From NCBI GenBank assembly GCA_013334245.1, contig JAAXXZ010000004.1, positions 127 to 64,126 of the forward strand: a stretch of DNA of 64,000 nt, read 5' to 3'. A program made the translations under genes and the position numbers. This document shows, piece after piece, positions 1,907 to 62,081 of this stretch; positions within the stretch are counted from its first letter, which is position 1; each line of letters starts with the position of its first letter. The notes beneath the pieces are model-generated. The model was given only the letters and a program-made list of their open reading frames with translations. It did not search any database and was not told the DNA's origin. This DNA comes from Candidatus Moraniibacteriota bacterium. Its GTDB lineage: Bacteria > Patescibacteriota > Minisyncoccia > Moranbacterales > UBA1568.

Positions 1907-3961
1907 ATGGCAAAGAAAGATACCGAAAAATCAAACTACGGCGCGAAGTCCATTCAGGTCCTCGAAGGACTTGATCCGGTGCGTAAGCGCCCGGGCATGT
2001 ATATCGGCGGCACCTCGACCGAGGGTCTTCACCATCTGATCTGGGAGATCGTGAACAACTCGATCGACGAGGCGATGGCCGGGCACTGTACTGATGTCGT
2101 GGTCAGACTCCTTCCCGATAACGTCGTGGAAGTCGAAGACAATGGGCGAGGCATTCCGGTCGAGATTCATCCGCAGACGAAGAAGTCCACGCTTGAGACG
2201 GTGCTTACCGTGCTGCATGCCGGAGGGAAGTTCGGCGGCGATGGGTACAAGATTTCCGGGGGTCTGCACGGGGTCGGCGTCTCGGTCGTGAACGCGCTCT
2301 CGGAATGGACCCGGGCGACCGTCCGTCGTGACGGAAAATTATGGATGCAGGAATTCAAGCGCGGTATCCCGCAGGGGTCCGTGAAAGCGATCGGCAAGGC
2401 GACCGATACCGGTACGACCATCACGTTCAAGGCGGATTCGGAAATCTTCCCGGAAATCGAGTACGGTTGGGAGAAGATCCTCGAGTATCTGCGGTATCAG
2501 GCATATCTCACGAAAGGCGTCCGTATCCAGGTCGAGGACCTGCGTGAAGCGGACGCGCCGGGAAGCGCCCATCTCGCGAAGCGGTACGGTTTCTATTTCG
2601 ATTCCGGCATCATCTCGTTCGTGAAATTCCTGAACCGTCGCAAGGACGTGAAGAACGAGGTTCCCGTCTATATCGAGAAGACCGTGGACGGCGTCTACGT
2701 CGAGATCTCGCTCCAGTATACCGACAGCTACAAGGAGCATCTTTTCGCGTTCGCGAACAATATCTACAATCCCGAAGGCGGCATGCACGTCACGGGATTC
2801 AAGATGGCGCTGACACGGGTCCTGAACGACTATGCCAAGAAGAACGGCCTCCTGAAGGAGAAGGACGGGGCGATGACATCGGACGATCTGCGCGAGGGGC
2901 TGACGGCGGTCATCTCGGTCAAGCTCGCGAACCCGCAGTTCGAGGGTCAGACGAAGGCGAAACTCGGCAACAACGAGGTGAGGGGCATCGTCTCGTCGGT
3001 GCTTTCGGAAGGGCTGAACGAATATCTCGAGACTCGGCCGGCGGACGCCAAGGCGATCCTTGAAAAATGTCTCCTGACGGTCCGGGCGCGCATCGCCGCA
3101 CGCGCTGCCAAGGACGCGGTCATCCGCAAGGGCGCGCTCGAGGGCATGACGCTTCCGGGCAAACTCGCCGACTGTTCGACCAAGGACACGCAGCGCAGCG
3201 AACTCTACATCGTCGAGGGCGATTCCGCAGGCGGCTCGGCCAAGCAGGGGCGGAACCGCGAGTTCCAGGCCATCCTGCCGCTTCGCGGCAAGCTTGTGAA
3301 CGTGGAAAAGACCACGCTCGACAAGGTCGTGAAATCCGATACCCTGAAGCCGATCATCATCGCCCTTGGTGCGGGTATCGGGGAAACGTTCGATATCTCG
3401 CGGCTCCGGTACGGCAAGATCATCGTCATGGCGGATGCCGACGTCGACGGTTCGCATATCCGGACGCTTTTGCTGACATTCTTCTATCGGTACTACGAGG
3501 AACTGGTCCGCAACGGGAACATCTATATCGCCCAGCCACCGCTCTATCGTCTGCAGAAAGGAAAGACCGTCCGATACGCGTACAATGACGACGAGAAGAT
3601 GCGTATCCTTGAAGAAATCAAGAAAGAAGCCGATCTCCGCGCGGAGAAGAAAGGAAAGGTTGCCGCCGTAAAGAAAGTCGAAGTGGACGAGCCTGGTGAG
3701 GAGACGGACGAGGCGCCTTCGGAGGGTGAAGAGAAGGTCGGGGGCGTTTCGATCCAGCGGTACAAAGGTCTCGGAGAAATGAACCCGGAGCAGCTCTGGG
3801 AGACGACCATGAACCCCGCAAGCCGTCTTATGCTCCAGGTCAAGATAGAAGACGCGGAAGCGGCCGACGAACTGTTCGACATTCTCATGGGGAACGAGGT
3901 CGAGCCGCGTCGCAAGTTCATCCAGACGCATGCGAAGACGGTGAAGAATCTCGATGTCTAG
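1907..3961 (+). CDS. gyrB: DNA gyrase subunit B
   Basis: N-terminus MAKKDTEKSNYGAKSIQVLEGLDPVRKRPGMYIGG, the GHKL ATPase motifs, Toprim EGDSAGG and the PLRGK motif; start moved to ATG 1907. Confidence 0.95.
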   Translation: MAKKDTEKSNYGAKSIQVLEGLDPVRKRPGMYIGGTSTEGLHHLIWEIVNNSIDEAMAGHCTDVVVRLLPDNVVEVEDNGRGIPVEIHPQTKKSTLETVLTVLHAGGKFGGDGYKISGGLHGVGVSVVNALSEWTRATVRRDGKLWMQEFKRGIPQGSVKAIGKATDTGTTITFKADSEIFPEIEYGWEKILEYLRYQAYLTKGVRIQVEDLREADAPGSAHLAKRYGFYFDSGIISFVKFLNRRKDVKNEVPVYIEKTVDGVYVEISLQYTDSYKEHLFAFANNIYNPEGGMHVTGFKMALTRVLNDYAKKNGLLKEKDGAMTSDDLREGLTAVISVKLANPQFEGQTKAKLGNNEVRGIVSSVLSEGLNEYLETRPADAKAILEKCLLTVRARIAARAAKDAVIRKGALEGMTLPGKLADCSTKDTQRSELYIVEGDSAGGSAKQGRNREFQAILPLRGKLVNVEKTTLDKVVKSDTLKPIIIALGAGIGETFDISRLRYGKIIVMADADVDGSHIRTLLLTFFYRYYEELVRNGNIYIAQPPLYRLQKGKTVRYAYNDDEKMRILEEIKKEADLRAEKKGKVAAVKKVEVDEPGEETDEAPSEGEEKVGGVSIQRYKGLGEMNPEQLWETTMNPASRLMLQVKIEDAEAADELFDILMGNEVEPRRKFIQTHAKTVKNLDV

Positions 3962-4444: not shown

Positions 4445-5107
4445 ATGTCCGACACGATCACGCTCAAGGCTTCGGTCCGCGAGGCCGGAAAGGGGCTGCA
4501 GACGCTTCGGAAGAGCGGATTCATCCCGGGGTCCGTCCATGGCCACGGCATCGAGCCGACTAACCTTTCCCTGGAGAGCCGGGAATTCACCCGCGCGTTC
4601 AAGGCGGCCGGTGAGAACACGATCATCGCGTTGACTATCGACGGCGCCAAGCCGGTGAACGTGCTCGTGAAGGAGGCACAGATGCACCCGCTCACGAACC
4701 GCTACACGCATGCCGATTTTTTCCAAGTCCGCATGGACGAGGTGATCGAGGCGACCGTGCCGTTCGAATTCGTCGGTGATTCCGCGGCGGTCAGCGAATT
4801 GGGCGGCGTACTTATCAAGGCGTCCGATGAGGTTGACGTGAAGGCGCTCCCGGCCGATCTTCCGCATACGATCCAGATCGATCTGTCCGCGCTCAAGACG
4901 TTCGACGACGTCATCAAGATCGGGGATATCGTACTGCCGAAGGGCGTGACCGTCGACGCCGATGTCGAGACGGTGATCGCGCTCGTGGAGGCTCCGCGAA
5001 CGACGGCTGAAATCGAGGCGCTTGACGAGAAGGTCGATGCCGATGTGACGAAGGTCGAGAAGGCCGGAAAGCCGGCCGAGGAGTCGGCGGAAGAGGCCGC
5101 GAAATAG
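4445..5107 (+). CDS. rplY: 50S ribosomal protein L25 / general stress protein Ctc
   Basis: N-terminal L25 beta-barrel region (TITLKASVRE...GFIPGSVHG...) followed by an acidic Ctc-type C-terminal extension. Confidence 0.8.
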   Translation: MSDTITLKASVREAGKGLQTLRKSGFIPGSVHGHGIEPTNLSLESREFTRAFKAAGENTIIALTIDGAKPVNVLVKEAQMHPLTNRYTHADFFQVRMDEVIEATVPFEFVGDSAAVSELGGVLIKASDEVDVKALPADLPHTIQIDLSALKTFDDVIKIGDIVLPKGVTVDADVETVIALVEAPRTTAEIEALDEKVDADVTKVEKAGKPAEESAEEAAK

Positions 5108-5428: not shown

Positions 5429-6385
5429 TCAGGACTTGTATCGTGTCGGTGTCACCGAAACGATGCAGGCATTCTTCCTTTTATTGGCAGTGAAGAAATC
5501 GATCCTGAAGCCTATGTTGTTGAACGTTTCGACGATGGTTTCTTCCGCGAACTTCTTGCTGATGGCGAGCAGGATTTCCTCACCCTTTTCGAACTCGACG
5601 CGGTGTCCTGCGATGTTAATCGCCTTATCCGAGTTCATGGTCAGTACCATCTCTATCTGTTTCAGGTTTCTGTTCCACCGGACGGAGTATTCCTCGAAGG
5701 AGCAGTCCATGTCGTATCCCTTCAACGTCGCCGATACGAGATTGAACACCTCTTCCGTCCGATAATATTCGATGAATTTCTGGGAGGCGAGCAGGTTCGA
5801 TATCTGATTCCCGATGATGAGCGTATCGTTCGGAAACATCGAAAGCTTGATATCGGTCAGGATCTTCTCCGTATTCTCGAAATTTCCGAGCGTGTTTCCG
5901 AGCAGGAAGAAATAGTTCTTGGTACGCTTCTCCTTCGTAAGTTTGAGGATCTGTTCCAAAATCTCCCCCTTTTCAAAATCAAACAGCACCTTGATGATCT
6001 GGACGTCCGGAAACCGTTCCGTAAGATTCTTTTCCGCCTCATCCAACATCTTCGGACTGATGTCGACCGGGATATACCTGACCGTCGCCTTCGTTCTGAG
6101 AAACTCGAGAACCGGAATCATCGGGATGCCGTCGCCGCACCCGAAGTCGACGATATTCACCGTGTCGACGTCCGAATCGACTTCGCGCAACATGTACGGA
6201 AGGGATTCCGTTTTCAGGAGGTTTTCCTCGAATTGGATGGAGTGTTCCGATCGGCTTTTTTCGGCGATCTCGATCCATCTCCGGTACCCGTCTCCGACGT
6301 AGGCGAATTTCAACGGCGATACGGCTCGGGAATCGAGCGCGGAAAGGAGTTCGAGTTCCTGGTTTTCATTGAGATAACCCCGCAT
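5429..6385 (-). CDS. SAM-dependent methyltransferase, EgtD-like (Methyltransf_33-type)
   Basis: DFGCGDG SAM motif and FLLGNTLGNF motif; GC about 47%, clearly below the flanking 60%. Confidence 0.55.
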   Translation of the reverse strand: MRGYLNENQELELLSALDSRAVSPLKFAYVGDGYRRWIEIAEKSRSEHSIQFEENLLKTESLPYMLREVDSDVDTVNIVDFGCGDGIPMIPVLEFLRTKATVRYIPVDISPKMLDEAEKNLTERFPDVQIIKVLFDFEKGEILEQILKLTKEKRTKNYFFLLGNTLGNFENTEKILTDIKLSMFPNDTLIIGNQISNLLASQKFIEYYRTEEVFNLVSATLKGYDMDCSFEEYSVRWNRNLKQIEMVLTMNSDKAINIAGHRVEFEKGEEILLAISKKFAEETIVETFNNIGFRIDFFTANKRKNACIVSVTPTRYKS

Positions 6386-39676: not shown

Positions 39677-42445
39677 ATGGTGGAGGTGTTAGTATCAGTA
39701 AAAAGGTACCTGATCCCTTTTCTGCTAAGCAATATGGCCACTGTATTGGACAAAATTGAAGTAATAAACGAAAAGATCAATAAGAATATTAGCATTCTTG
39801 GAAGTAGTCAGAGAGGTCTTGCATCTCAGGATATTCTTAAAAGCCTGCGTGATTTAATCGAGCATACTGCTGTTTTGATTCATGTGGGAAGTGAAGCAGA
39901 ATTCAACCGTGTTACAAAAGATGCGGGTATGTCCCACATCAAACAAGATCCAGGTAGGTATAGTTTTTTGTACAGATTTCACGACAGAATACAGCTAGCC
40001 TTGTCTCACTATGAGCCAAATGAGAGTGACGCGGAAATGCTTATGCTGGGCTACATGCACGACTTGTTTCTAGTAAAAAAATTTTACATTGAAAACTACA
40101 AACATAGCCTATTGCAGGAGTTGCGGAATTATCCGCTAAACCTTGATCCTGGTTTGTCGGAATACTACAAGGCGGTAATTGAAAAACTAAATAATGGTGA
40201 ATATGAAAAAGAGGCAGATAGAGCTGATTTTTACATTGATAGAGTAAAGCCTTTAATTATTGATGACGAACTGTATTACGAAGTAACCTTTCGTCCTGCG
40301 ACAAACAATTTTGCAAAGTTCAATAAAACAGTTGCCTTTACAAGGCAGAGAATTACAACAAATTACGCCCTCCGACTTAGATTGGCACGTACCCAAATAA
40401 ATGTATTTGACACTAAATCGCGCGCTTTGATTATTTTGGATTACGAAATATCGATACGACCTTGTGAGATACAACACCTTGGGATGATATTTGATCGAGG
40501 CTTTACATTCAATAGCAGAGACAAAGAGTACCAGAATTTAATGAGCGCTCTTAAGGTGAGTCAACTTACACTTTTGGAAATAGCCATTTTGTCCGAGGAG
40601 AGGTATGAAAAGTTTAAGCAGTATATAAGTGCTGGTACGAGTTCTGTAAACATCAAAAATGTCATTGAAAAATGTCGACAGGTAATTTTGAATAACAACG
40701 ACGGTGCAAATATACTCAGGTATCTCCTTACCAACCTAAACAATGTTGTATTAAAGAAACAACTCTTTCAAGAACCATGCGGTATTCTTTCCAATCTATA
40801 CTTGAAAAATAGTTGCAAAGTATTCGATACCATGCCTTTTTGCTCATCGTTGAAGGAACACAATCCAACGAAACTTTCATTAATCAATTGCATATCTCCA
40901 GAGGGCAGGCATCATGAATTTTTGGCAAGGCGCGTGAATCAAAACACAAGAACTCGGAAAATTCTCTATACTCCGTTAGATGAAGTTGAAAAAGTTTATG
41001 CTGTAGACAAGGAGATTGAGACCTTCAATTCAAAAGTGTGGTGGGGACATAAACCTAAGCGATTACTAAGAAAATACTCTAAATATATATACGAGCATGG
41101 TGCAGAGAGTGATTGTTACGAAATATATACCAAATTATTAAGTTTTACCGATTCTTGTATTAAAGACTATCAAACACTTATTGATTTGTGGCTTGATCAG
41201 CAAGTTGAAAATGTAATTGATTCAGAGCAGAAGAAACAGGCGCTACGGCAGCTCTTTGCTAAATCTAGCGTAGCTCTGATTTATGGATCAGCAGGTACAG
41301 GTAAAACAAAGATGATCGAATATATCGACAGTGTTTTTCTTGGCGAAAAGAAAGTTTTTTTATCCAACACATGGGCATCAGTGAATAACCTTAGACATAG
41401 AATTGGTGAAAGCGACAGACGTTTTTTTTCGACAGTTTCTTCCTACTTATGCCACATAGATCATTACGATGAGGCGGAAATACTTTTTATAGATGAGTGT
41501 AGTACGGTGTGTAATGACGATCTGCTGAAAGTATTAAAACATAAGAAGTTTAAGAAAATTGTGCTAGTTGGTGATGTGTACCAAATTGAAGCAATAGATT
41601 TTGGAAATTGGTTTTATCTCTGTAAGAATTTATTGCCCGAGCATTGTATTTTTGAACTAGATGACACACATCGAACTAAGAAAGAAGATCTGAAATTATA
41701 CTGGTCAGCTGTTCGGAATGCTGTTTATGAGGTTCGTGAAATTGCATCCAGAGGACAATTCTCTCAGCCAATCGACCAATTTATAAAAAGTTACAAAGAT
41801 AGCGAAGATCAAATTGTACTGTGTTTAAATTATGATGGATTGTACGGAATTAACAATTTAAACAAATTACTACAAGAAAAAAACCCAAATGAGGGAATAG
41901 ATTGGGGAAGTGTTCATACATATAAAGCTGGAGATCCGATTATTTTCACTGAGACATCGAAATATGCTCCTGTTTTGTACAACAATCTAAAAGGACGTAT
42001 AACAAAAATTACTGCTAGTAGTGACGAAATACAATTTGAAATAATAATTGATTATTCGCCCAACCCGTTTGATGCGCAGAGTCGCGGTATTAAATTTTTA
42101 GAAAATCTTCCAGAGGGAAAGTCCAAGATAGGTTTATCCGTCAGCAAACTAGAGAATGTCGATGAAGATTTAGATGATTCTGACAGATTAGTTCCATTCC
42201 AAGTATCCTATGCCACGTCTATTCATAAGGCTCAGGGTTTAGAGTATAAAACTGTAAAGCTTGTTTTTGTTGATGAAGTTCAAGATATGGTTACTCATAG
42301 CATCTTTTACACAGCTATAACCAGAGCAAAGGAAAGGTTAGAGATATATTGGTCGCCTGAAACTGCAAGCAAGGTATATGAGCGCATTAAATCAAATTTA
42401 AACAAAAAAGATGCGTGCATTTTTAAAAGCAAATTTAAGCTATAG
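39677..42445 (+). CDS. 922-aa protein: about 500-aa N-terminal domain of unknown function fused to a C-terminal RecD/Dda-like SF1 helicase core
   Basis: Walker A GSAGTGKT, Walker B ILFIDECS, motif III VLVGDVYQ, motif V/VI SYATSIHKAQGLEYKTV; about 35% GC versus a 60% backbone; alternative start ATG 39743. Confidence 0.7.
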   Translation: MVEVLVSVKRYLIPFLLSNMATVLDKIEVINEKINKNISILGSSQRGLASQDILKSLRDLIEHTAVLIHVGSEAEFNRVTKDAGMSHIKQDPGRYSFLYRFHDRIQLALSHYEPNESDAEMLMLGYMHDLFLVKKFYIENYKHSLLQELRNYPLNLDPGLSEYYKAVIEKLNNGEYEKEADRADFYIDRVKPLIIDDELYYEVTFRPATNNFAKFNKTVAFTRQRITTNYALRLRLARTQINVFDTKSRALIILDYEISIRPCEIQHLGMIFDRGFTFNSRDKEYQNLMSALKVSQLTLLEIAILSEERYEKFKQYISAGTSSVNIKNVIEKCRQVILNNNDGANILRYLLTNLNNVVLKKQLFQEPCGILSNLYLKNSCKVFDTMPFCSSLKEHNPTKLSLINCISPEGRHHEFLARRVNQNTRTRKILYTPLDEVEKVYAVDKEIETFNSKVWWGHKPKRLLRKYSKYIYEHGAESDCYEIYTKLLSFTDSCIKDYQTLIDLWLDQQVENVIDSEQKKQALRQLFAKSSVALIYGSAGTGKTKMIEYIDSVFLGEKKVFLSNTWASVNNLRHRIGESDRRFFSTVSSYLCHIDHYDEAEILFIDECSTVCNDDLLKVLKHKKFKKIVLVGDVYQIEAIDFGNWFYLCKNLLPEHCIFELDDTHRTKKEDLKLYWSAVRNAVYEVREIASRGQFSQPIDQFIKSYKDSEDQIVLCLNYDGLYGINNLNKLLQEKNPNEGIDWGSVHTYKAGDPIIFTETSKYAPVLYNNLKGRITKITASSDEIQFEIIIDYSPNPFDAQSRGIKFLENLPEGKSKIGLSVSKLENVDEDLDDSDRLVPFQVSYATSIHKAQGLEYKTVKLVFVDEVQDMVTHSIFYTAITRAKERLEIYWSPETASKVYERIKSNLNKKDACIFKSKFKL

Positions 42446-52305: not shown

Positions 52306-53394
52306 ATGCGTATGAGGAAATTGCGGATCGCCCTGTTGGCACCGGTCGAAGAACGGGTGCCCCCGCCGAAATACGGTGGGACGGAAGTCGTGGTCTATAA
52401 CCTCGCGCAGCACCTGACCCGGATGGGTCACGAGGTGGTATTGTTCGCCACGGGCGATTCCGTGACCGATGCCACGCTCGTCCCGATATTTCCTGAGCCC
52501 ATCCGGACATTGCCGATATCGCGCAATCCGAAAGTCCGGCAGGTGCTGACGATCACGGGCATCGGACGGATGCTCGGATACCTGTCGCAATACGAGTTCG
52601 ACGTGGTGCATAATCATATCGGGTGGCTGTTTCTGCCGTTCGTGCAGACACTGCGCATGCCGGTCGTGACGACCCTGCATGGGTCGCTCGGCAATCCTGA
52701 CGAATCCGAAATCTACCGGTTGTTCGCGGGGGAGAACTATATAAGTATCAGCGACAAGCAACGGGAGTCGGGGCCGTCGGGGATGAACTATATCGCGAAC
52801 ATCTATAACGGGATAGAGATCCCGAGTTTCACGTTCGTTCCGGAACCGGGCCGCTACCTCGCCTTTCTCGCGCGAATCTCCAACGAGAAGGGAGCGCTTG
52901 AAGCCATACGGATCGCCAAAGCGTCGGGAGAGAGGCTCGTCATGGCGGGTAAGGTCGATCCGGCTGACGCGACCTATTTCGAGGAGCAGATCAAGCCGCT
53001 CATCGACGGCGAACAGATAAGATTCATCGGTGAGATCGGACACAAGGACAAAGTGAAGCTGCTTGGGCACGCGAAAGCGATTCTGTGTCCGATCCAGTGG
53101 GACGAACCGTTCGGTCTGTATTTCATCGAGGCGATGGCGTGTGGTACGCCGGTCATCGCGAACCGGCGAGGATCGGTTCCCGAGGTGATTGTCGACGGGG
53201 TGACCGGATACATCGTCGACTCCGTCGACGAAGCTATCGCCCGGGTCGCGGATATCGGTGATATCGACCGCCTGGCGTGTCGCCGGCACGTGGAAGAACA
53301 TTTTTCCGCCGAGGCCATGGCTGCCGGGTATGTCGCCGCCTACGAGGCAGTTCTGGATTGTCGTCACGAGACCGCGTGTTCCGTAATGTTCTGA
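52306..53394 (+). CDS. Family-1 glycosyltransferase (GT4-like, retaining)
   Basis: N-terminal G-rich substrate domain and C-terminal EPFGLYFIEAMACGTPVIA (E-X7-E region). Confidence 0.75.
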   Translation: MRMRKLRIALLAPVEERVPPPKYGGTEVVVYNLAQHLTRMGHEVVLFATGDSVTDATLVPIFPEPIRTLPISRNPKVRQVLTITGIGRMLGYLSQYEFDVVHNHIGWLFLPFVQTLRMPVVTTLHGSLGNPDESEIYRLFAGENYISISDKQRESGPSGMNYIANIYNGIEIPSFTFVPEPGRYLAFLARISNEKGALEAIRIAKASGERLVMAGKVDPADATYFEEQIKPLIDGEQIRFIGEIGHKDKVKLLGHAKAILCPIQWDEPFGLYFIEAMACGTPVIANRRGSVPEVIVDGVTGYIVDSVDEAIARVADIGDIDRLACRRHVEEHFSAEAMAAGYVAAYEAVLDCRHETACSVMF

Positions 53395-53398
53395 TCGG

Positions 53399-53413
53399 CC
53401 CGCTTTACAATAG
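53399..53413 (+). promoter_or_regulatory. CCGCTTTACAATAG motif copy 1 (upstream of rubrerythrin)
   Basis: One of four copies in 5 kb; contains TTTACA / TACAAT promoter-like hexamers. Confidence 0.4.
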
Positions 53414-53466
53414 GCGGTTCTTGCGGGAAAATTGTCGATGGGCGAAGTAATTTTGTTGAAAAGCAT

Positions 53467-53967
53467 ATGGCATCTCATGAAGACCTGATGGCGGCGTTCG
53501 CGGGCGAAAGCCAGGCGAACCGTAAGTACCTCGCGTTCGCGAAGAAGGCGGAAGCCGAAGGCTATCCGGCCGTGGCGAAGCTTTTCCGTGCGGCGGCCGA
53601 GGCCGAGACGGTACACGCGCACGCGCATCTTGCCGCGGCCGGCGGCGTGCAGGATACCGCCGCGAATCTCGAGGCGGCGATTGCAGGGGAACAGTACGAG
53701 TTCACGGATATGTATCCGGGGTTCATCGCGACTGCCGAGGCGGAGGGGAACGTGGCGGCACTCAAGTCTTTCAGGAACGCCGATGCGGTCGAGCACGAGC
53801 ACTACGAGCTCTATCGACAGGCACTCGAGGCAATCAAGGCCGGGCACGATATCGAGGACCTTGCGATCTACGTCTGTCCTGTCTGCGGGCATACCGAGGT
53901 CGGCGTCCGGTCGGAGAAGTGTCCGATTTGCGGCGTCCCGGGAAGCACGTTCATCGAGGTGAAGTAA
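53467..53967 (+). CDS. Rubrerythrin
   Basis: Di-iron four-helix E..H motifs and a C-terminal rubredoxin-like CPVCG...CPICG domain. Confidence 0.85.
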   Translation: MASHEDLMAAFAGESQANRKYLAFAKKAEAEGYPAVAKLFRAAAEAETVHAHAHLAAAGGVQDTAANLEAAIAGEQYEFTDMYPGFIATAEAEGNVAALKSFRNADAVEHEHYELYRQALEAIKAGHDIEDLAIYVCPVCGHTEVGVRSEKCPICGVPGSTFIEVK

Positions 53968-53995
53968 TCTCGCAGATTTCTTTGGAAAAGCGAAA

Positions 53996-54026
53996 AGCCA
54001 TGAAGGTGCGCCTTCATGGCTTTCGT
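53996..54026 (+). terminator. Rho-independent terminator after rubrerythrin
   Basis: AGCCATGAAGG-tgcg-CCTTCATGGCT followed by TTTCG. Confidence 0.6.
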
Positions 54027-54340
54027 GATTGCTGGGATAGTTTTGGGTCACTTGTTTCCGGGAAGTCGCACGCTTTTGTACTGCACGTTTCGCACATACT
54101 TCGATCCGGAACAGAGGATATGGTGGAGAAGGACTATGAGTCCTACTCCGAACAGGGTCCATTTTTTCATGATCAGAGATGGTTGCGTTAAAGAAAAGAG
54201 GGACAATCAGGCGAAAGAGAGGATATCACGCTCTGCAGATGTGTCAAAGATTTCGACGTATGAGGTAAGGAGATGATCGGCTCATATATGCGTGCGCTTC
54301 TTTTTCGGCCGGAACGGACATCCCGCTCGGGATACCGCTG

Positions 54341-54354
54341 TTCGCTTTACAATA
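54341..54354 (+). promoter_or_regulatory. CGCTTTACAATAG motif copy 2
   Basis: Directly upstream of a GGGGAGAGG RBS and the small ORF at 54373. Confidence 0.4.
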
Positions 54355-54372
54355 GTGTCCGGGGAGAGGAAA

Positions 54373-54480
54373 ATGAAGCAGGAAATCATGGCGGAAATTC
54401 ATGGCTATACGCCCGCTACATGTTGCCGATGCCATCACAGGAGTGACGCGAGCGGACGGCCGTCCATTCGCGTCACCTGA
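54373..54480 (+). CDS. Possible 35-aa Cys/His-rich peptide (MKQEIMAEIHGYTPATCCRCHHRSDASGRPSIRVT)
   Basis: Strong SD 5 nt upstream and motif copy 2 upstream; the 3' end is encoded inside the 34-bp palindrome, so it may be a non-coding leader instead. Confidence 0.25.
   Translation: MKQEIMAEIHGYTPATCCRCHHRSDASGRPSIRVT
54443..54476. promoter_or_regulatory. 34-bp nested palindrome GTGACGCGAGCGGACGGCCGTCCATTCGCGTCAC, candidate operator, copy 1
   Basis: 9-bp outer arms GTGACGCGA/TCGCGTCAC and inner GGACGG/CCGTCC arms; 25 bp upstream of the PaaX-like gene start. Confidence 0.45.
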
Positions 54481-54502
54481 TTGAATGATAATGGAGGGAA
54501 AT

Positions 54503-55081
54503 ATGAAACGACTGGGACCGGTGCAGGAAAAGACGCTTCTCATCCTTCTTGGTGTCATCGCGCTTGGGGGTTCGCGCACGATCGTGCGGCAGGCCAGGCT
54601 GGTTTCGGAGCTCCGAAAGGAATGGAAAAAGATCGACCGGAGGAGCGTCGCGCGTTCGCTGAGGCGCCTTTCCGAGGAGAAGCTCATTTCCGAGAAGGTC
54701 TTGCCGGATGAGACCGTCCATTTCGCGCTCACCTCGGAAGGGCGTCGGAAAGCGAGTTTTCTGAACCTGTTCGGTTCGGCCATCACATTCAGGAAGCCGA
54801 AAAAATGGGATGGAAAATGGCGGGTTGTCGCGTTCGATATTCCCGAGAAGAGCCGGTCATTCCGCCGCATCTTGCGCGAGCATCTTCATGAAGCGGAATT
54901 CTATCAGTTGCAGCAAAGCGTGTTCGTATCGCCATATCCTTTCGAGGAGCCGTTTGCGAAGCTCGTGCGGCTGTATGATGCCGAGCCGTACGTCAGGATC
55001 ATGACGGTTTCCTGGATGGATGACGAACTGAAATTGAGGCGCATATTTTTCGGACGTCGCAGGAATCCTTCGAAAGGGTGA
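54503..55081 (+). CDS. PaaX-like winged-helix transcriptional regulator
   Basis: C-terminal block KWDGKWRVVAFDIPEKSRSFRRILREHL...QQSVFVSPYP matches the PaaX C-domain pattern; SD GGAGGG upstream. Confidence 0.55.
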   Translation: MKRLGPVQEKTLLILLGVIALGGSRTIVRQARLVSELRKEWKKIDRRSVARSLRRLSEEKLISEKVLPDETVHFALTSEGRRKASFLNLFGSAITFRKPKKWDGKWRVVAFDIPEKSRSFRRILREHLHEAEFYQLQQSVFVSPYPFEEPFAKLVRLYDAEPYVRIMTVSWMDDELKLRRIFFGRRRNPSKG

Positions 55082-55111
55082 CGTGAGCGGACGGTCGTCA
55101 TTTCGCGCCAC
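55078..55111. promoter_or_regulatory. 34-bp palindrome copy 2 (GTGACGTGAGCGGACGGTCGTCATTTCGCGCCAC), overlapping the regulator stop codon
   Basis: 28 of 34 positions identical to copy 1. Confidence 0.4.
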
Positions 55112-55147
55112 ACTTTTGAGAAGAGTGTGATTTTTCGAATACGGATA

Positions 55148-55162
55148 CCCGCTTTACAATAG
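55148..55162 (+). promoter_or_regulatory. CCCGCTTTACAATAG motif copy 3 with G-rich leader GGGGAGTAGAAAGGGGGTGAAAGGGG
   Basis: Shares the motif and an extended leader with copy 4. Confidence 0.4.
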
Positions 55163-55200
55163 GGTAATTGGGGAGTAGAAAGGGGGTGAAAGGGGTGGGG

Positions 55201-55390
55201 ATGAAGGCATCCGATCTCGTTTTGGGTTAGGGCTGCTCATCGAGGTCGAGCGATTGTCGGACGCAGAAAACGACGAAGCGGTCCAGGAAGACCTGAAAGC
55301 CTTTCTCCTGTCACTCGGCATCGGCAAAATGGACATCGTCACCAAGGGCTACGATACGCTTTTGTATGAGGCGGGAAAATTCGCTTGTTA
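55201..55390 (+). pseudogene. Internally deleted duplicate of the CYTH gene: promoter, leader and first codons fused to the last about 160 bp
   Basis: 55233-55390 is about 90% identical at nucleotide level to 58969-59124; the reading frame is closed after 9 codons (MKASDLVLG*). Confidence 0.6.
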
Positions 55391-55451
55391 AAGGAGTTGG
55401 AGGGGAGGAAAACAGGGGTGTAGGTCTATCGTGATGCTTTCTTCATTGACT

Positions 55452-57839
55452 ATGAAATACGTCAGCTCCCTTTGGAATATCGAGAAAGAAGATAGCGCTA
55501 TCGCTGGAGGAAAAGGCGCTTCGCTTGGTGAGATGATTCGGGCGGGCTTCCCTGTCCCGCCAGGATTTGTCGTTCTTTCAAGTGCTTTTGACGTTTTCTT
55601 GAAGGGGACGGGCTTGAATGCCAAGGTGGAATTGATACTGGAGTCAGTTATTCCCGAAGACACAGGGACAATCGAAAAAGCTTCTGAAAACATCCGATCG
55701 ATTATCCTTGCGGCGGCGATGCCAAGGGAAATTGAAGAGGAAATCAGGAAATCATTCAATGAACTCGGTTCGGAATATGTCGCTGTCAGGTCTTCGGCTA
55801 CCGCCGAGGATTCTGCTGTAGCGGCATGGGCAGGACAGCTCGAAAGCTTTCTTAATACCAATTCGGAAGACTTGCCGAAAAACGTGAAGAGTTGTTGGGC
55901 TTCGCTCTTTACGCCGCGCGCCATAACATATCGGCTCGAAAAAGGATTGGGTTCGCAAAGCATATCAGTCGCTGTCGTCGTTCAGGAAATGGTGGAGAGT
56001 GATACGTCAGGTATTGCCTTTTCCGTCCATCCCGTAACACATGACGTCGACCGTATGTTTATCGAAGCGGGGTACGGGCTTGGTGAAGCGATCGTGTCGG
56101 GGCAGGTTACCCCGGACAGTTATGAGGTGAGAAAAGATCCGATGGAAATAGTGGATAAGAATATTCAATCACCAGCGCGTGGATTATATCGGTCTGATCG
56201 CGGAGGAAACGAATGGCACGATGTGCCTGCGGAGCGGAAGGGGAAGGCGGTTTTGTCGGACGCTGAAATCATAAAGCTGTCGGATATTGTTGTCGGCATA
56301 GAGGGACACTATGGGTTCCCATGCGATATCGAGTGGGCAATCGCAGACGGGCGGCTGTATGTTGTCCAAAGTCGACCGATAACGACACTTGCTGAAAAGC
56401 TCGTGACCGTAGAAAAATTGTTGCTCATGTACAAGGAAGTCAATGTCTGTGGATTGACGATGTCCGTGAACGTCTCGGGTTGGATAGACGAATGGCTGAG
56501 TCGGACCTGCCGCGTAGGCAGTTTCGGGTCGATGGCTTGCCGGTTCCGCGGATATGAGATGGATTTCTATGTGGATAAGGGTCAGTACGAAAAAGCGCAT
56601 TTCGAAATAGTGCGACAGATCGAGGCTGGCACGTATCCCATCGAGTTTTCGACCGAGCGCTCGATGGCGTTGGGTGATCGGATCCTATCGATTGTCCGTT
56701 CGGGTCGTTCGGTATGGGAGGCTATGGACCCTGGGAAAGTCTGCGAAATATTCTCTGAAGTATTCGATTGTAGTCGGAAGCTTTGTTCTTATGGATACAT
56801 TGCCCCCTTATCCGATTTCCCGTACACCTTCATTTCTTCCCGGATGCAGGAGATACTCGAGGCGCGTCACGCTTCGGATGCGGCTGGTCTGAAAATCTTT
56901 TTGAGTACCCCGGAGGCTAGGCGCCCGATGATGCTTGCAAACGAAGAGATGTTTCGGATTATCGCCGAGCAAGGGGACCTCGGATCGTGGCTACAGCGGT
57001 GGTTTTGGATCGATTTCGGTCACATCGGTGCGGTGCTGACCGACGCGTCGGTTCGTGAGAAGTACAAGTTATTATTTGACGATCCCAAACGCGCGACGAC
57101 AGAGCTGCAAAATATCTCTGCAGAATACGGTTCTTTGGAGGAGAAACAGGAAAAAAATATTGGAGAGCTCGGGTTTTCAGATGAAGAGAGACGGATTTTT
57201 CGATATGCACGGGAGATCACGTTTCTGAAGGGGTATCGTGCCGATGTGCTTTCGGCGGCAAACGCATTTTTTGACGCGGTTTTCGAAATCTATTCGAAAA
57301 GACTCGGTATCGGGAAAGACGTTTTCAGGTTTGCGACAAAAGAGGAAGTGGTTGCGCTCATATCGGGAAGCGATATCAATGTCGCGGAAATCCTTGAAAG
57401 GAAAGACTATTCCATTTGGCTTTATACGGACAACGCCTCTGGAATCTTGATACATACCGGCGAACAGGCACGACAGTTTGAAGCAGATCATCTGGCGGAA
57501 GAGCATGTCGTTCATGAGGGAAAAGTTATAAAAGGAAATGTCGCGTACCCCGGTATCGTTGAAGGTACTGTTCGGATTGTGAACTCTCTGGAGGACCTTA
57601 AGAAGATGAATCGCGGAGAAATCCTGGTATCGACGCAGACCACACCGGAACTGCTTCCCGCGATGAGCAAGGCGGCCGCCTTTATTGCCGATGTTGGGGG
57701 GATTATTTCCCATGCCGCCATCGTCGCGAGAGAGATGAAGAAGCCTTGTATCATTGGGACCGAAATCGCATCCAAGGTCCTCAGGGATGGCGATCGGGTT
57801 CGTGTCGATGCCAACTCCGGGGTGATAGAGATAATATGA
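55452..57839 (+). CDS. PEP-utilising enzyme with N-terminal PEP-synthase-type ATP-grasp domain and C-terminal phospho-His swivel domain, with no PEP/pyruvate TIM-barrel domain (rifampin-phosphotransferase-like architecture)
   Basis: N-terminal GGKGASLGEM and ATP-grasp motifs; C-terminal GGIISHAAIVAREMKKPCIIGT mobile domain at the very end of the protein. Confidence 0.7.
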   Translation: MKYVSSLWNIEKEDSAIAGGKGASLGEMIRAGFPVPPGFVVLSSAFDVFLKGTGLNAKVELILESVIPEDTGTIEKASENIRSIILAAAMPREIEEEIRKSFNELGSEYVAVRSSATAEDSAVAAWAGQLESFLNTNSEDLPKNVKSCWASLFTPRAITYRLEKGLGSQSISVAVVVQEMVESDTSGIAFSVHPVTHDVDRMFIEAGYGLGEAIVSGQVTPDSYEVRKDPMEIVDKNIQSPARGLYRSDRGGNEWHDVPAERKGKAVLSDAEIIKLSDIVVGIEGHYGFPCDIEWAIADGRLYVVQSRPITTLAEKLVTVEKLLLMYKEVNVCGLTMSVNVSGWIDEWLSRTCRVGSFGSMACRFRGYEMDFYVDKGQYEKAHFEIVRQIEAGTYPIEFSTERSMALGDRILSIVRSGRSVWEAMDPGKVCEIFSEVFDCSRKLCSYGYIAPLSDFPYTFISSRMQEILEARHASDAAGLKIFLSTPEARRPMMLANEEMFRIIAEQGDLGSWLQRWFWIDFGHIGAVLTDASVREKYKLLFDDPKRATTELQNISAEYGSLEEKQEKNIGELGFSDEERRIFRYAREITFLKGYRADVLSAANAFFDAVFEIYSKRLGIGKDVFRFATKEEVVALISGSDINVAEILERKDYSIWLYTDNASGILIHTGEQARQFEADHLAEEHVVHEGKVIKGNVAYPGIVEGTVRIVNSLEDLKKMNRGEILVSTQTTPELLPAMSKAAAFIADVGGIISHAAIVAREMKKPCIIGTEIASKVLRDGDRVRVDANSGVIEII

Positions 57840-58474
57840 CCACGTTCCCTATGAGACTTATACTTGGCTCGGATATGAGCTTTCTTCTGAAATACGGGTA
57901 CGACCTGACCGGAATTTCGAAGGCGGATATGCGGATCGGGTATGTGACGACAGGGATAAAGGGAGTGCGCACGAAGGAATTTTTCGAGAACGTGGAACGA
58001 CAGATCGTGGAGATCGGATACGATTTCGAGAAGTTCGATATTGAAGGAAAAAGCGTGGAAGAAATGAGGTCGTTCTTCGCGGACAAGAACGTGATCCATA
58101 TCGAAGGCGGTAATACGTTCTATCTATTGAAAGCCATCCGGGAAACCGGTTTCGCCCCAGTGCTTGATGAGCTCCTCAAAGAGGGGAAAGTCTATATCGG
58201 TACGAGTGCGGGATCCTATATAATGTGCCCGTCGATCGAAGTGGCGGATTGGGACGAAACCGGAAAAAGCCGGTTCGGAATGACCGACTTCACCGCTCTC
58301 GGGTATGTCCCATTCGTTCTGAAAGTGCATTACAAGGATGAGAAGGAAGAAACCGTGAGGGAAAAGATGAAGACTGTGCACCATCCGCTCCGATTACTTC
58401 GTGACGGGCAAGGCATCCTCGTCGACAACGGCGTCGAAACCTTCGTCGGTGACGGAGAAGAAACGGTGTTATAG
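57835..58474 (+). CDS. Peptidase E (S51 family)
   Basis: GTSAGS nucleophile region and IHIEGGNTFYLL; ATGA overlap with the preceding stop codon. Confidence 0.75.
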
Positions 58475-58484
58475 GTGAATTATA

Positions 58485-58499
58485 TCCGCTTTACAACGG
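58485..58499 (+). promoter_or_regulatory. TCCGCTTTACAACGG motif copy 4 with the same G-rich leader as copy 3
   Basis: Upstream of the CYTH gene at 58549. Confidence 0.4.
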
Positions 58500-58548
58500 C
58501 GTGTTTGGGGAGTAGAAAGGGGGTGAAAGGGATGGATATTCCGTTCCG

Positions 58549-59124
58549 ATGGTGGGGTATGTCATTAGTACCGAAATGAAGGAAATCGAGGTCAAAGCAC
58601 GGATACGCGATATCGACACGCTGACCGGAGTGCTTGCCGCCAAGGGGTTCGTATTCGGCGAACCCGCGGTCCAAAACGACGTGATATTCCTGCCGGCCGG
58701 GATCGAGTTCCCGGAAATCACCAAAGGGGTGCCGGTCGTGCGTGTGCGGAACGCGGACGGCGTTTTTACCCTGACACTCAAGATGCGCGTCATCGCCGGG
58801 AAGGAACTCATAAAGCTGGAGAAGGAAGTGAATGTGAGCGACGACAAGACGGCCATCGAGATCGTCTCGCTCATGGGATTTCACGAGGTGATACGAGTCG
58901 GCAAGAAACGGATGGAATGCGAACACGACGGCGTGACCGTCTGTATCGACGATGTGACCGGACTCGGGGCGTTCATCGAGGTCGAGCGATTGTCGGACGC
59001 AGAAAACGGCGAAGCGGTCCAGGAAGACCTGAAAGCCTTCCTCCTGTCGCTTGGCATCGGCACAGACGACATCATCACCAAAGGCTACGACACGCTTTTG
59101 TATGAGAAGAAGAAACCGTGTTAA
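58549..59124 (+). CDS. CYTH-domain protein (CyaB-like), paralogue 2
   Basis: MKEIEVKARI E.E.K motif; intact parent of the 55201-55390 fragment; a short 15-codon uORF in another frame starts at 58533. Confidence 0.65.
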   Translation: MVGYVISTEMKEIEVKARIRDIDTLTGVLAAKGFVFGEPAVQNDVIFLPAGIEFPEITKGVPVVRVRNADGVFTLTLKMRVIAGKELIKLEKEVNVSDDKTAIEIVSLMGFHEVIRVGKKRMECEHDGVTVCIDDVTGLGAFIEVERLSDAENGEAVQEDLKAFLLSLGIGTDDIITKGYDTLLYEKKKPC

Positions 59125-59179
59125 AACGCGATTGGAAGAGTATGAATGAATATAATCCATAATACAGTTTCATGAGTCT

Positions 59180-60946
59180 ATGCGATATATAAAGTTTCTG
59201 ATTCGTAATTATAAAGGAATAAAGTCATTAGAGTTGGATTTAGATTTATTCCCCGATCATAAAATCTATACACTAGTTGGTCTAAATGAATCGGGGAAAA
59301 CAACCATACTTGAAGCAATAAATGATTTTGAATTTGATGTCTCAGTTAATAAGCGGCATCTGTTAATACCGAAGAGTTCGGCGGGAGGTTTTACTGGAGA
59401 TATCGCAATAAAAGCAACGCTTCAATTTTCTGAAGATGATAAAGGGAGAATAATTGCCTTCATTCGGTCGAGGATTAAGGTAAGTGAAGTGTTTGTCTCT
59501 GAAACTTTAATCATAGAACGAAAATATAGTTTTAAAAACTCTACGCCGTATGAGTCTAAAAGAACATACGAAAAATATGTAAAAATAAAAAAGACTGCAA
59601 AAGGAAAGCCAGTTGATTTGGATGAAAGTATATCCAAAGAACTGTGGAGTTTTATTAAGGAAACGATGTTTCCTGAGATAATCTTTTATCGTGATTTCCT
59701 TTCTAAATTTCCGGAGAAGATTTACTTAGATGCAGAAGATCCTAAAGATAAGAACTATCTATCAATTATTGAAGATATTCTTACTGCTATAAATCCTGAT
59801 TATAACGTTCAAAATAGTCTCTTAGACAGACTGGACGATTCAACTGATGCTGCAAAAAAACAAGCGCTTGAAGCAGTCGAGAATGACATGGGCGCGAAGA
59901 TTTCTAAAGTAGTGTTTGACGCATGGAACAAGATACTAAACGTAAGTAAGAAAGAAATTGTTGTTAAGGCAGAATATGATGCCGAGAAGGGAAGATATTA
60001 TCTTCGATTGAGCGTAAAAGATGGTCATCAAACTTACGCCGTTGCTGAGCGGAGTCTAGGATTTCGATGGTTTTTCACTTTTCTTTTATACACAGAATTT
60101 CGAAAGGAAAGGATAAAAACTTCAGGAGAAATCTTGTTTATTTTGGATGAGCCAGCATCAAATCTTCATCAGACTGCGCAACAAAGCTTACTTGAAACAT
60201 TTCGTACAATAACAAGCAAATCACGACTAATATATACAACACATAGTCATCATTTGGTGAATCCAGAATGGTTAAGTTCCGCATATATTATTCGAAACAA
60301 AGGTCTTAAGTATAATGAGAGTGATGATTATAATCTAACGAAGACGGAAATTGAAGCATTTAAGTACAAGCAATTTGTTTCAAAATACCCGACCGAAACC
60401 TCGTATTTTCAGCCGATTTTGGATGTGTTGGATTATAAGCCAGGCTTACTTGAGCTGATTCCCAATATCGTAATAACAGAAGGAAAATTCGACTATTTTA
60501 CCTTTAGATATTTTAAAGAGATAGTTTTCTCGGACTTGACTGATGGCTATAGATTTTATCCTGGAATGGGCGCTTCAAGCTTAGACCTACCTATTTCCTT
60601 ATATGAATCATGGGGTAAAGGATATTTGGTTTTACTTGATTCGGATAAGGAGGGCCGTGATCAAAAGGAGCGTTATATTAAAGATATAAGCGATACTCAG
60701 CATATCTATACTCTTGAGGATTGTTTTTCAGATTTAAAAAATTCAACGACTGAAAAAGTATTTACTGAAACGGAAAAAATTGAAATCTCTAAGGAGTTTA
60801 ACAGTGAGCTTACTGAATATAATAAAAACGCTTTTAATACGGGAATTCAGATTCTGTTAATGCAAAAACGTATTCCTGACTATTTAACTGATGAAACAAA
60901 GAAAAAGATGAGGAAGATTATCGAATTTATCAACGGTAAAATATAA
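59180..60946 (+). CDS. OLD-family nuclease (N-terminal ABC-type ATPase plus C-terminal Toprim)
   Basis: Walker A GLNESGKTT, Walker B ILFILDEPASNLH, H-loop TTHSHH; Toprim Glu (ITEGKFD) and DxD (LLDSDKEG); about 33% GC. Confidence 0.7.
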   Translation: MRYIKFLIRNYKGIKSLELDLDLFPDHKIYTLVGLNESGKTTILEAINDFEFDVSVNKRHLLIPKSSAGGFTGDIAIKATLQFSEDDKGRIIAFIRSRIKVSEVFVSETLIIERKYSFKNSTPYESKRTYEKYVKIKKTAKGKPVDLDESISKELWSFIKETMFPEIIFYRDFLSKFPEKIYLDAEDPKDKNYLSIIEDILTAINPDYNVQNSLLDRLDDSTDAAKKQALEAVENDMGAKISKVVFDAWNKILNVSKKEIVVKAEYDAEKGRYYLRLSVKDGHQTYAVAERSLGFRWFFTFLLYTEFRKERIKTSGEILFILDEPASNLHQTAQQSLLETFRTITSKSRLIYTTHSHHLVNPEWLSSAYIIRNKGLKYNESDDYNLTKTEIEAFKYKQFVSKYPTETSYFQPILDVLDYKPGLLELIPNIVITEGKFDYFTFRYFKEIVFSDLTDGYRFYPGMGASSLDLPISLYESWGKGYLVLLDSDKEGRDQKERYIKDISDTQHIYTLEDCFSDLKNSTTEKVFTETEKIEISKEFNSELTEYNKNAFNTGIQILLMQKRIPDYLTDETKKKMRKIIEFINGKI

Positions 60947-61013
60947 TTTGGACATTCAGATAATGGTCTATATTCAATATTTCGAATAAATTCCCCCTAC
61001 TTGTCGCGTATCC

Positions 61014-61037
61014 GAAAAGGGGTCAAGTACTTTTTTA
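61014..61037 (+). other. 24-nt motif GAAAAGGGGTCAAGTACTTTTTTA (copy B), 68 bp downstream of the OLD gene
   Basis: Matches copy A at 42531-42555 at 22 of 24 positions. Confidence 0.5.
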
Positions 61038-61140
61038 ACGTCTTCTCGACAGACCATCGGAAATATGCCGGATATTAAGATGTGAAAAATGCAGGCGATG
61101 ATTGATAAATATTTCTATAATTAAATTGTAATTAAAAAGT

Positions 61141-61773
61141 ATGTCATATTGCTCGATGTGTGGAACCAAGGCAAATGATGGCGCAATCTTTTGTTCTAAG
61201 TGTGGATCGAATTTGCAAAAGGGCCAACCCTCTGATCTTGAGGTAAAAGAAATTCGGTCAGAAAGTAATATCAGTTTTTTTTCCATATCAAACAAGCGTC
61301 TTGCTCTGTTTTCTGTTATCACGTTCGGCCTATACGAGATATTTTGGTTTTATAAAAATTGGAGTGCAGTAAAAATGGCCGAAGGCAAGAAGATCGCACC
61401 ATTCTGGAGAGCTATATTTGCTGTATTTTTCTGTCACTCACTTTTTAAGAAAGTTCTTGAATCAGCTAAAAGTCATTCATATACCAAATCGTATTCTCCT
61501 GGTTGGCTAGCTGCAGGGTATATTATTATTCTTTTTATTAATAATGCTTTGAGTAAAGCAGAATCTACTGATATAAGTACTCTTTTGTTGTTACTGTTTT
61601 CTTTGATTTCATTTTTGCCTTTGTTGCCAGTCCAAAATGCGATTAACTATAATAATGAACAATTAAAGGGTGCGATGCCGTTGAAACATGGTTTCTCTGG
61701 TGGGGAAGTTACAATTATAGTAGTGGGTATCATTTGGTTTTTTCTGGTACTCGTTGGTACGTTCTCGGCGTGA
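61141..61773 (+). CDS. Zinc-ribbon-anchored membrane protein (DUF4234-like)
   Basis: N-terminal CSMCG...CSKCG ribbon, GLYEIFWFYKNW motif, 4 TM; AT-rich like the OLD gene. Confidence 0.5.
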   Translation: MSYCSMCGTKANDGAIFCSKCGSNLQKGQPSDLEVKEIRSESNISFFSISNKRLALFSVITFGLYEIFWFYKNWSAVKMAEGKKIAPFWRAIFAVFFCHSLFKKVLESAKSHSYTKSYSPGWLAAGYIIILFINNALSKAESTDISTLLLLLFSLISFLPLLPVQNAINYNNEQLKGAMPLKHGFSGGEVTIIVVGIIWFFLVLVGTFSA

Positions 61774-62081
61774 TCGGAAAAGATTAAGGTTCCTTTTTAG
61801 CCTCCCTCTCGCCATACCGCCGGAAACATCTCAGGTGCACGGAAGAGGGGATTCGAATGCAGACGGAAGGGAAGGAATGTGCGATACTATCGATATGACA
61901 CAGGACGAGACATACGAGCGGATACTGGAAGCAGCGAGGAACGATTCCAAAGTCCTCGGTTTTGTGCTGACCGGAGGAGGTTGGAAATTTATCTGACTCA
62001 ATGATGCATAGACGATCGCCGTCACGGATGACAGTATGAGAATCTTGGAGACGTGAATGAATAAAGTGTTTCTGAACCGTT

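Follow-up and report, generated by a model that had tools for sequence, protein, structure and literature searches.

In a 64-kb stretch of a metagenome-assembled genome of Candidatus Moranbacteria (Patescibacteria), here called the window, the gene of a short PaaX-like regulator stands between two copies of a 34-bp palindrome, and we propose that these palindromes are probably the double-stranded DNA operators recognized by the encoded regulator. Our comparisons show that both sites are real and accompany this gene lineage, that their three-part symmetry has a fixed length, and that they covary with a residue in the predicted recognition helix of the regulator. Patescibacteria, also known as the Candidate Phyla Radiation (CPR), are almost all uncultured, and we know of essentially no cis-regulatory site tied to a transcription factor in this group. 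A search of the literature for PaaX in Patescibacteria/CPR and for ACGGCCGT, the conserved center of the site, returned no description of this element.

The regulator gene is flanked by two copies of a 34-bp palindrome

The first copy (site 1; positions 54443 to 54476 of the window, no strand assigned; GTGACGCGAGCGGACGGCCGTCCATTCGCGTCAC) consists of the outer half-sites GTGACGC and GCGTCAC, the linkers GAGCGG and CCATTC, and a core, ACGG·CCGT, in which the dot marks the dyad. Its outer 9 bp and inner 6 bp are perfectly complementary, as a preliminary description of this DNA had stated, with GC facing AT between them. With 15 of 17 arm positions paired, site 1 ranks first among the zero-spacer palindromes of the 64-kb window, and this level was reached in none of 20 composition-matched simulated sequences. 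Its center lies 44 nt 5' of the ATG of the regulator gene (54503), within the predicted 5' leader, and the gap between the palindrome and the ATG measures 26 nt, one more than first reported.

The second copy (site 2; 55078 to 55111, likewise without a strand; GTGACGTGAGCGGACGGTCGTCATTTCGCGCCAC) follows 635 bp further on, with the regulator gene between the two. Our recount gives 29 of 34 identical positions between the copies, where 28 had been given. The stop codon TGA of the regulator (55079-55081) falls within the left arm of site 2, at arm positions 16-14, in agreement with the overlap described earlier. Taken alone, site 2 is a weak palindrome (11/17 positions paired), a level found at 86 places in the window versus 54 expected; its significance comes from its identity to site 1 and from its conservation in orthologous loci. 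The similarity of the two copies continues for 11 nt 5' of the palindrome, and the window holds just these two sites of the class. The bracket around the PaaX-like gene, which was the central observation of the preliminary description, is thereby real.

The gene between the palindromes encodes a short PaaX-like protein

The regulator gene (54503 to 55081, plus strand) encodes a protein of 192 amino acids with a winged helix followed by a Cas2-like domain (residues 106-183). A homologue search returned a 100%-identical protein from Candidatus Moranbacteria. In an AlphaFold2 model (pLDDT, the predicted local distance difference test, 75.7), the predicted winged helix comprises helices at residues 6-21 and 27-42, a recognition helix at 46-58 and a beta wing at 62-76, and a ferredoxin-like domain comes next. 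The family profile aligns residues 17-87 with the winged-helix regulator QsrR, which likewise places 46-58 as the recognition helix. The Pfam model PaaX_M (PF20803, the Cas2-like central domain of PaaX) matches residues 100-170 with an E-value of 1.4e-21 and 76.8 bits against a cut-off of 24, and there are weak Pfam matches to HxlR (5.3e-4) and Cas2. The top Foldseek match in the PDB is Escherichia coli PaaX (8a39; E-value 8.8e-5, 195 alignment columns), with many Cas2 structures next. The PaaX_M and Foldseek matches both bear out the PaaX-like label that the gene had been given.

PaaX proteins are GntR-type repressors that respond to phenylacetyl-CoA; the regulator is a short PaaX-like relative but no PaaX equivalog. 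With the PaaX equivalog model TIGR02277 its score is 32 bits, where the cut-off is 264.55, and only positions 32-152 of the 279 profile positions are covered; the C-terminal effector domain of PaaX, which binds phenylacetyl-CoA, is absent, the protein stopping at residue 192 with no match to Pfam PaaX_C. No paa genes, which serve phenylacetate catabolism, are found near the regulator, whose neighbors encode a glycosyltransferase, a rubrerythrin, a phosphoenolpyruvate (PEP)-utilizing enzyme, an S51 peptidase, a CYTH protein and an ABC-type ATPase, and the gene neighbors differ among related loci. This family of short PaaX-like proteins is widespread, with hundreds of homologues. Two Cas2 motifs are kept in the window protein, FDIPE (54833-54847, codons F111-E115) and QxSVF (54911-54925, Q137-F141), and D112, at the position of the catalytic Asp of Cas2, is invariant in 51 homologues. 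Tested against Cas2 family models and defense-system models, the regulator stays below the cut-offs (18.9 versus 23.8 and 21.3 versus 24.5).

The bracket is conserved with the gene lineage

We retrieved 161 loci encoding relatives of the regulator protein, cited below by their L numbers. In 38 related Patescibacteria loci with a regulator identity of at least 47% (47-98%), the density of the core motif is 4.9 per kb at the gene borders versus 0.105 per kb elsewhere, a 47-fold difference, and a site is present on both flanks of the orthologous gene in about 28 of the 38. In the close orthologues (L001-L005 and L081; 63-98% protein identity) both palindromes are kept while the surrounding non-coding DNA diverges and becomes unalignable; site 1 is conserved in L001-L004 and L081, and site 2 in L001-L005 and L081. 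Among distant relatives, to as low as about 36-50% identity, complementarity of the outer arms persists although their sequence is wholly different, as with CCAACTTTAAGTGACGGCCGTCACTTAAAGTTGG in L015, and ACGG·CCGT in the center varies only by transitions at the two center positions.

The placement of the sites follows the ends of the gene. The center of the upstream site lies 26-46 nt before the ATG in some loci and 90-169 nt before it in others; for the downstream site, an overlap with the stop codon or a position within about 25 nt 3' of it is found in most loci, and one up to about 50 nt away in L090; the distance between the two ranges from 605 to 760 bp across loci. We considered whether the stop codon keeps one register within site 2, which proved not to be general: it occupies arm positions 16-14, 18-16, 21-19 or 11-9, or stands still further from the dyad. 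Within a genome, derived states are common to the two copies; both L003 copies, for instance, carry GAGCTGACGG and CCACTC.

These patterns bear on the idea that site 2 is the leftover of a local duplication and that the pair has no function of its own. The 11 nt of similarity 5' of the palindrome would suit such an origin, as would the weak palindrome of site 2 alone and a neighborhood rich in partial duplications. A remnant would hardly persist, however, as both copies do, in place down to about 40-50% protein identity amid unalignable non-coding DNA, nor would the two copies be expected to change in concert within each genome, and we find this explanation scarcely credible.

Paralogues without sites occur in the same genomes (L006 and L007, to be compared with L004 and L002, and also L084). 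In addition, a sister lineage (L014, L016 and L096-L098; 51-52% identity) has no ACGGCCGT sites; its loci carry a different, 22-bp palindrome, GCTACGTAACATG(T/C)TACGTAGC, in two copies per locus (at 3116 and 3855 in L014, at 3845 and 5315 in L016, and also in L096-L098).

Some relatives carry three to five sites between adjoining, functionally unrelated genes, the copies (two to five) being 45-940 bp apart, mostly with genes between them. Four or five sites are found in L008, L090, L094 and L085, and five in L010, and in all these loci they separate unrelated co-oriented small genes; in L004, one site was duplicated together with 30 nt of flank. The five sites of L010 are near-alike (GTAACATAAT...ATTATGTTAC) and lie at 1547, 2328, 3266, 3971 and 4577, in a layout like that of a cassette array. 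Among the genes between them are one Mrr-type restriction-endonuclease-like and one NUDIX-like gene, both judged by the look of the sequence alone.

With such layouts in view, we considered whether the palindromes may be structure-specific sites of recombination or mobility, similar to repetitive extragenic palindromic (REP) elements or to attC sites, that form cassette boundaries and on which the regulator protein would act. The arrays and the duplication in L004 agree with this, as do the invariant D112 of the 51 homologues and a region 3' of the gene that is highly variable and contains gene fragments. However, the junction of the insertion or deletion that distinguishes the window from L001 lies at a repeated promoter/leader motif (about 55195) and not at a palindrome, and a rubrerythrin gene is found 5' of the regulator in the closest relatives (directly in L002-L004; several kb off in L081, with other genes between), so that the regulator gene has not been recently mobile. 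Moreover, there are two sites only in 64 kb, the site is conserved centrally whereas attC is conserved at its ends, and no recombinase or HUH-type protein was seen at the locus, no systematic integrase search of the window having been made. Altogether, we hold a role in recombination to be highly unlikely.

Three known classes of element were also compared and rejected. In the case of a system of REP elements with their associated tyrosine transposases (REP/RAYT), the protein does not fit, being a winged helix plus a Cas2-like domain and not an HUH/Tyr transposase, and the window has only two sites. In the case of integron attC, the conserved part is here the central ACGGCCGT and the ends vary, with no GTTRRRY at the site ends. 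An array of clustered regularly interspaced short palindromic repeats (CRISPR) would have many direct repeats of 25-40 bp with spacers of similar length, not a pair of copies that stand 635 bp apart and enclose a gene. An outside chance is that the short proteins of Patescibacteria with a winged helix and a Cas2-like domain keep D112 in order to nick ACGG·CCGT or process it in a structure-specific way, the palindromes bounding exchangeable cassettes of variable islands in a Cas2-derived, integron- or REP-like system without Cas1; the site arrays of L010, L008, L090, L094 and L085 may then be cassette arrays.

The site has a three-part symmetry of fixed length

To return to the proposed operators, an alignment on the dyad of 27 divergent sites showed that dyad symmetry spans positions 1-17, counted from the dyad outward, and is at chance level by position 18, both in GC-rich and in AT-rich genomes. 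Positions 1-4 (ACGG), 9 (A) and 13 (C) are the most informative, while the linker positions 5-8 are weakly symmetric and form the least symmetric part of the site. The family consensus is GTrAC-N8-ACGGCCGT-N8-GTyAC. The 7-bp half-sites, at positions 17-11 on each side of the dyad, are separated by 20 bp and are thus spaced about 27 bp apart.

Paired cells amount to 88.7% of the alignment versus 63% in shuffles, cells changed on both sides number 122 versus 39.6 in shuffles, and the covariation score is 0.652 versus 0.11-0.18 for slid controls; because outer-arm symmetry was one of the grounds on which the sites for these counts were picked, and because the sequences have a common ancestry, the symmetry and covariation statistics, and likewise the residue-base coupling described below, are inflated to an unknown degree.

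Residue 48 of the predicted recognition helix tracks base 14 of the half-sites

We performed an unbiased scan of about 2,366 residue-by-position pairs, in which the coupling between residue 48 of the protein and base 14 of the site took rank 1 (z-score 7.6, subject to the inflation just mentioned). Residue 48 is the third in the predicted recognition helix (46-58), and it tracks base 14 of both half-sites. Where residue 48 is S (12 loci including the window), base 14 is nearly always A, the exceptions being G in one of four half-sites in the window, L002 and L093. Asparagine at this residue goes with T in 5 loci, H with C in L108, and Q or A with G in L106 and L118; with G at residue 48 (L003 and L004) the base is variable. 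The S and N classes stand on separate branches of a neighbor-joining tree, and base 14 is nearly constant inside each residue-48 class, while positions 11, 12 and 15 vary. This coupling is the signature that direct readout by the winged helix would leave, and the sites are therefore tied to the protein encoded between them.

Duplex DNA is favored over an RNA hairpin

Symmetry with two-sided changes is compatible with a hairpin as well as with the site of a symmetric dimer. The palindromes could thus be RNA hairpins at the two ends of the regulator mRNA (5' leader and 3' end), where they would stabilize or terminate the transcript or be bound by the regulator to control its own translation. Indeed, both copies lie within the predicted transcript, and the predicted hairpin of site 1 is very stable whichever strand is read (-26.5 kcal/mol, z -4.8). 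Sites of the family stand just 5' of the start codon and at the stop codon, TTTT follows site 2, and covariation of the pairs is strong; the Cas2 fold, moreover, is related to RNA-binding folds.

Several observations nonetheless favor duplex DNA. The arms are fixed at 17 bp and not variable in length, and in several family members (L062, L008 and L092) core and outer arms are kept while the linkers are non-complementary and unpaired, with no significant hairpin stability (z -0.3 to -1.7). Mismatches comprise 42 G·T versus 32 A·C, so that G·U is not in excess over A·C as a bias toward RNA pairing would have it. T-tracts are generally not present after the sites: when the next 9 nt were scored at 55 family sites, at least five T were found in 7 and at least five A in 14. 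A separate terminator-like hairpin comes after site 2. A search of Rfam 15 with positions 53300-55500 and E-values up to 10 gave no match to the palindromes, the only hit being to an unrelated small RNA at 53971-54020 with 20 bits versus a gathering score of 55. The strongest of these observations is the residue-base coupling; the coupled residue lies within the recognition helix of the winged helix. We therefore consider an RNA role unlikely. The asymmetry of the linkers is not conserved between lineages. The inverted orientation of the two L092 sites was examined as a further argument for double-stranded DNA and left unused, the alignment being too ambiguous.

We reject intrinsic termination by the palindromes because of the tally of T-tracts and the canonical terminators of unrelated sequence that exist in the same genomes. 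The preliminary description had noted that neither copy has a T-tract; this applies to site 1, which is followed by CTGATTGAA, but not quite to site 2, which is followed by ACTTTTGAG (ACTTTT), with four T only, starting after 2 nt, and then by the separate hairpin with its run of five T. The latter (CACACTTTTGAGAAGAGTGTG then ATTTTT; 55109 to 55135, plus strand) stands directly after site 2 and came from a consensus scan for terminators, which selects the hairpin at 55109-55129 and not site 2. With its T5 run it is a weak fold (-9.5 kcal/mol, z -1.4), present in L001 and L002. Elsewhere in the window, a canonical intrinsic terminator lies 3' of the rubrerythrin gene (53997-54024; GCCATGAAGG/CCTTCATGGC then TTTCGTG; -23.9 kcal/mol, z -4.5) and illustrates what ordinary terminators look like in this genome.

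Promoter-like elements and a proposed model of autorepression

A consensus scan identified a putative promoter of the regulator gene at 54346 to 54374 on the plus strand (TTTACA at 54346-54351, a 17-nt spacer, and GAAAAT at 54369-54374). It belongs to a repeated motif, CGCTTTACAATAG, that occurs at 53401, 54343, 55150 and 58487 and is readable as TTTACA, a 17-nt spacer, and GAAAAT or TAGAAA; the promoter-like motif is also present 153-163 nt 5' of the ATG in L003, L004 and L081. If the second copy of the motif is taken as the promoter of the regulator, site 1 would lie at about +62 to +95 in the leader, a geometry kept in L003, L004 and L081. A Shine-Dalgarno-like GGAGGG, read from the sequence at 54494 to 54499 (plus strand), stands 3 nt 5' of the ATG; L003, L004 and the AT-rich relatives do not share it.

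An overlap of site 1 with a promoter was looked for in the window and rejected, the recognizable promoter being about 100 nt 5' of the site. A proximal -10 candidate, GATAAT (54487-54492), is not conserved in L081, L003 and L004, and we place no weight on it for this reason. Four AT-rich lineages have a TGnTAnnAT element, ending 7 nt before the ATG, that shares bases with the right half-site, and this suggests promoter occlusion there. That the palindrome is itself a promoter in these relatives, where the right half-site plus 3 nt gives TGnTAnnAT, is a weak reading because the sequence is AT-rich; the gap from a site to the next gene ranges from 6 to 173 nt.

In PaaX, the Cas2-like domain is the dimerization module. 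By analogy, a dimer of the window protein held together by its Cas2-like domains would place the two recognition helices on the outer half-sites (GTGACGC), about 27 bp apart, with the invariant ACGG·CCGT under the dimer axis. Site 1 lies downstream of the predicted promoter and ahead of the start codon, and its occupation would reduce expression of the regulator (autorepression), either by an elongation roadblock in the leader or by occlusion of a proximal promoter. A second operator would be provided by site 2 at the stop codon, and it could cooperate with site 1 through a loop of about 635 bp or insulate the gene from its neighbors. We infer all of these elements from comparative data, namely binding, the sign of regulation, looping, the part of the protein that reads the core and the signal sensed. 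A precedent is available in E. coli PaaX, which binds TGATTC-N27-GAATCA and represses its own promoter Px (review, PMC9493321). Together with the conserved bracket, the fixed symmetry and the residue-base covariation, this precedent lends support to the earlier suggestion that the palindromes may be autoregulatory operators.

Several points weigh against this model. Its basis throughout is comparative sequence analysis of metagenome-assembled genomes, and the statistics of symmetry, covariation and residue-base coupling are inflated, as said above. Neither site of the window overlaps a recognizable promoter, site 1 lying at about +62 to +95 and site 2 about 60 bp 5' of the next -35 element, which is less usual for a simple repressor. 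The positions of the sites are conserved relative to the ends of the open reading frame, which would suit a function in the mRNA too, and both sites are transcribed with the gene, site 1 with its very stable hairpin. In addition, no part of the protein is assigned to the invariant core, and the half-site spacing of about 27 bp differs from that of about 33 bp in E. coli PaaX.

Site 2 and the downstream genes

The preliminary description had also suggested that the regulator may, through site 2, gate the downstream unit of CYTH, PEP-utilizing enzyme and peptidase genes. The comparison with L001 speaks against this. The unit lies in a 6.66-kb segment (55196-61853) that is absent from L001, which is 98% identical and keeps site 2 and the promoter motif, so that site 2 is tied to the regulator gene and not to the CYTH/PEP unit. 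Furthermore, the downstream genes differ among orthologous loci and the spacing between site and promoter is variable. The next promoter-like motif, the third copy, occupies 55153 to 55181 on the plus strand (TTTACA at 55153-55158, a 17-nt spacer, and TAGAAA at 55176-55181); its -35 element starts 41 bp after the end of site 2, with the terminator-like hairpin between them. The order of site, about 45-60 nt, and promoter is kept in six loci with varying spacing.

The 55196-61853 segment contains a truncated CYTH copy, the PEP-utilizing enzyme, the S51 peptidase, a CYTH/class IV adenylate cyclase-like gene, an ABC-type ATPase and one further open reading frame. Its left junction is the 3' end of the repeated promoter/leader motif, and the difference from L001 looks like an insertion or a deletion mediated by this motif. 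A promoter-plus-leader motif of about 54 nt (CCGCTTTACAAT..GGGGAGTAGAAAGGGGGTGAAAG) stands before successive unrelated genes, at 55145-55198 and 58482-58535 in the window, at 5652, 6093 and 7743 in L081 and at 4643 and 5787 in L002, and it marks the points where close relatives lose collinearity. Just 3' of the third promoter motif, positions 55230-55370 repeat 141 nt from the 3' end of the CYTH gene (58966-59106) with 90% identity and are a gene remnant; L003 likewise has fragments of S51 and CYTH genes.

The GC content falls to 0.37-0.45 at 58-62 kb, and a second low-GC stretch lies at 40001-42000 (0.36 versus about 0.57 in the rest of the window). The ATPase of the segment (588 amino acids; 59180-60946) matches the anti-phage models AriA of PARIS (80.6 bits, full profile), OLD, GajA and PtuA, and the gene before it matches class IV adenylate cyclase (CyaB, TIGR00318) with 86 bits versus a cut-off of 58. 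The pair of ATPase and CyaB-like gene may be a defense island.

Significance and comparison with known systems

The result is a testable pair, made up of a short PaaX-like protein family and the 34-bp consensus given above, with a predicted rule of specificity in which S, N or H at residue 48 would go with A, T or C at base 14. It is also suggested that the Cas2-like domain sets the wide spacing of the two winged helices; the invariant center of the site may be read by this domain or sit under it. As for its kind, an autoregulated repressor with palindromic operators follows conventional logic, and the finding is therefore useful and not surprising. Its value would lie in a concrete pair of transcription factor and site in a bacterial group with essentially uncharted regulation.

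Compared with intrinsic terminators, site 1 is similarly a GC-rich hairpin and site 2 stands at the 3' end of a gene with TTTT after it, but the family goes without a T-tract, its core is conserved across genomes, its length is fixed, and unrelated terminators are found in the same genomes. With REP/RAYT systems and integron attC the window shares a gene bracketed by similar imperfect palindromes, as well as arrays in some relatives. Unlike in those systems, the regulator is neither an HUH/Tyr transposase nor a tyrosine recombinase, the sites are not dispersed over the 64-kb window, the center of the palindrome is conserved with no GTTRRRY core, and the rearrangement junctions lie elsewhere. 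With Cas2 the protein shares the ferredoxin-like fold and the two motifs FDI and QxSVF, with the catalytic Asp position kept; Cas1 and a CRISPR array are both absent, the palindromes are about 600 bp apart with genes and not spacers of 30-40 bp between them, and the scores are below the Cas2 cut-offs.

Regulators of the HxlR/MarR type (QsrR; PDB 4hqe and 4hqm) are alike in the alignment of profile residues 17-87, in the weak Pfam HxlR match and in binding palindromic DNA as dimers. They dimerize through helices beside the winged helix and use compact sites of about 16-20 bp, whereas here the site has 34 bp and dimerization is proposed to occur through the Cas2-like domain.

Among the systems compared, E. 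coli PaaX, with operators at the paa, pac and paaX promoters, differs from the window protein in length (about 305 versus 192 amino acids), in having a C-terminal effector domain and in the presence of paa genes, none of which lie near the window gene. The half-sites of the window are about 27 bp apart versus 33, an 8-bp invariant center is not described for PaaX, and the sites of the window bracket the gene instead of overlapping its promoter. The two proteins share an N-terminal winged helix and a Cas2-like central domain (PF20803; Foldseek 8a39). The PaaX operator is a long-spaced inverted repeat, TGATTC-N27-GAATCA, through which its own promoter is repressed (PMC9493321), and the sequence of the window appears compatible with an arrangement of this type.

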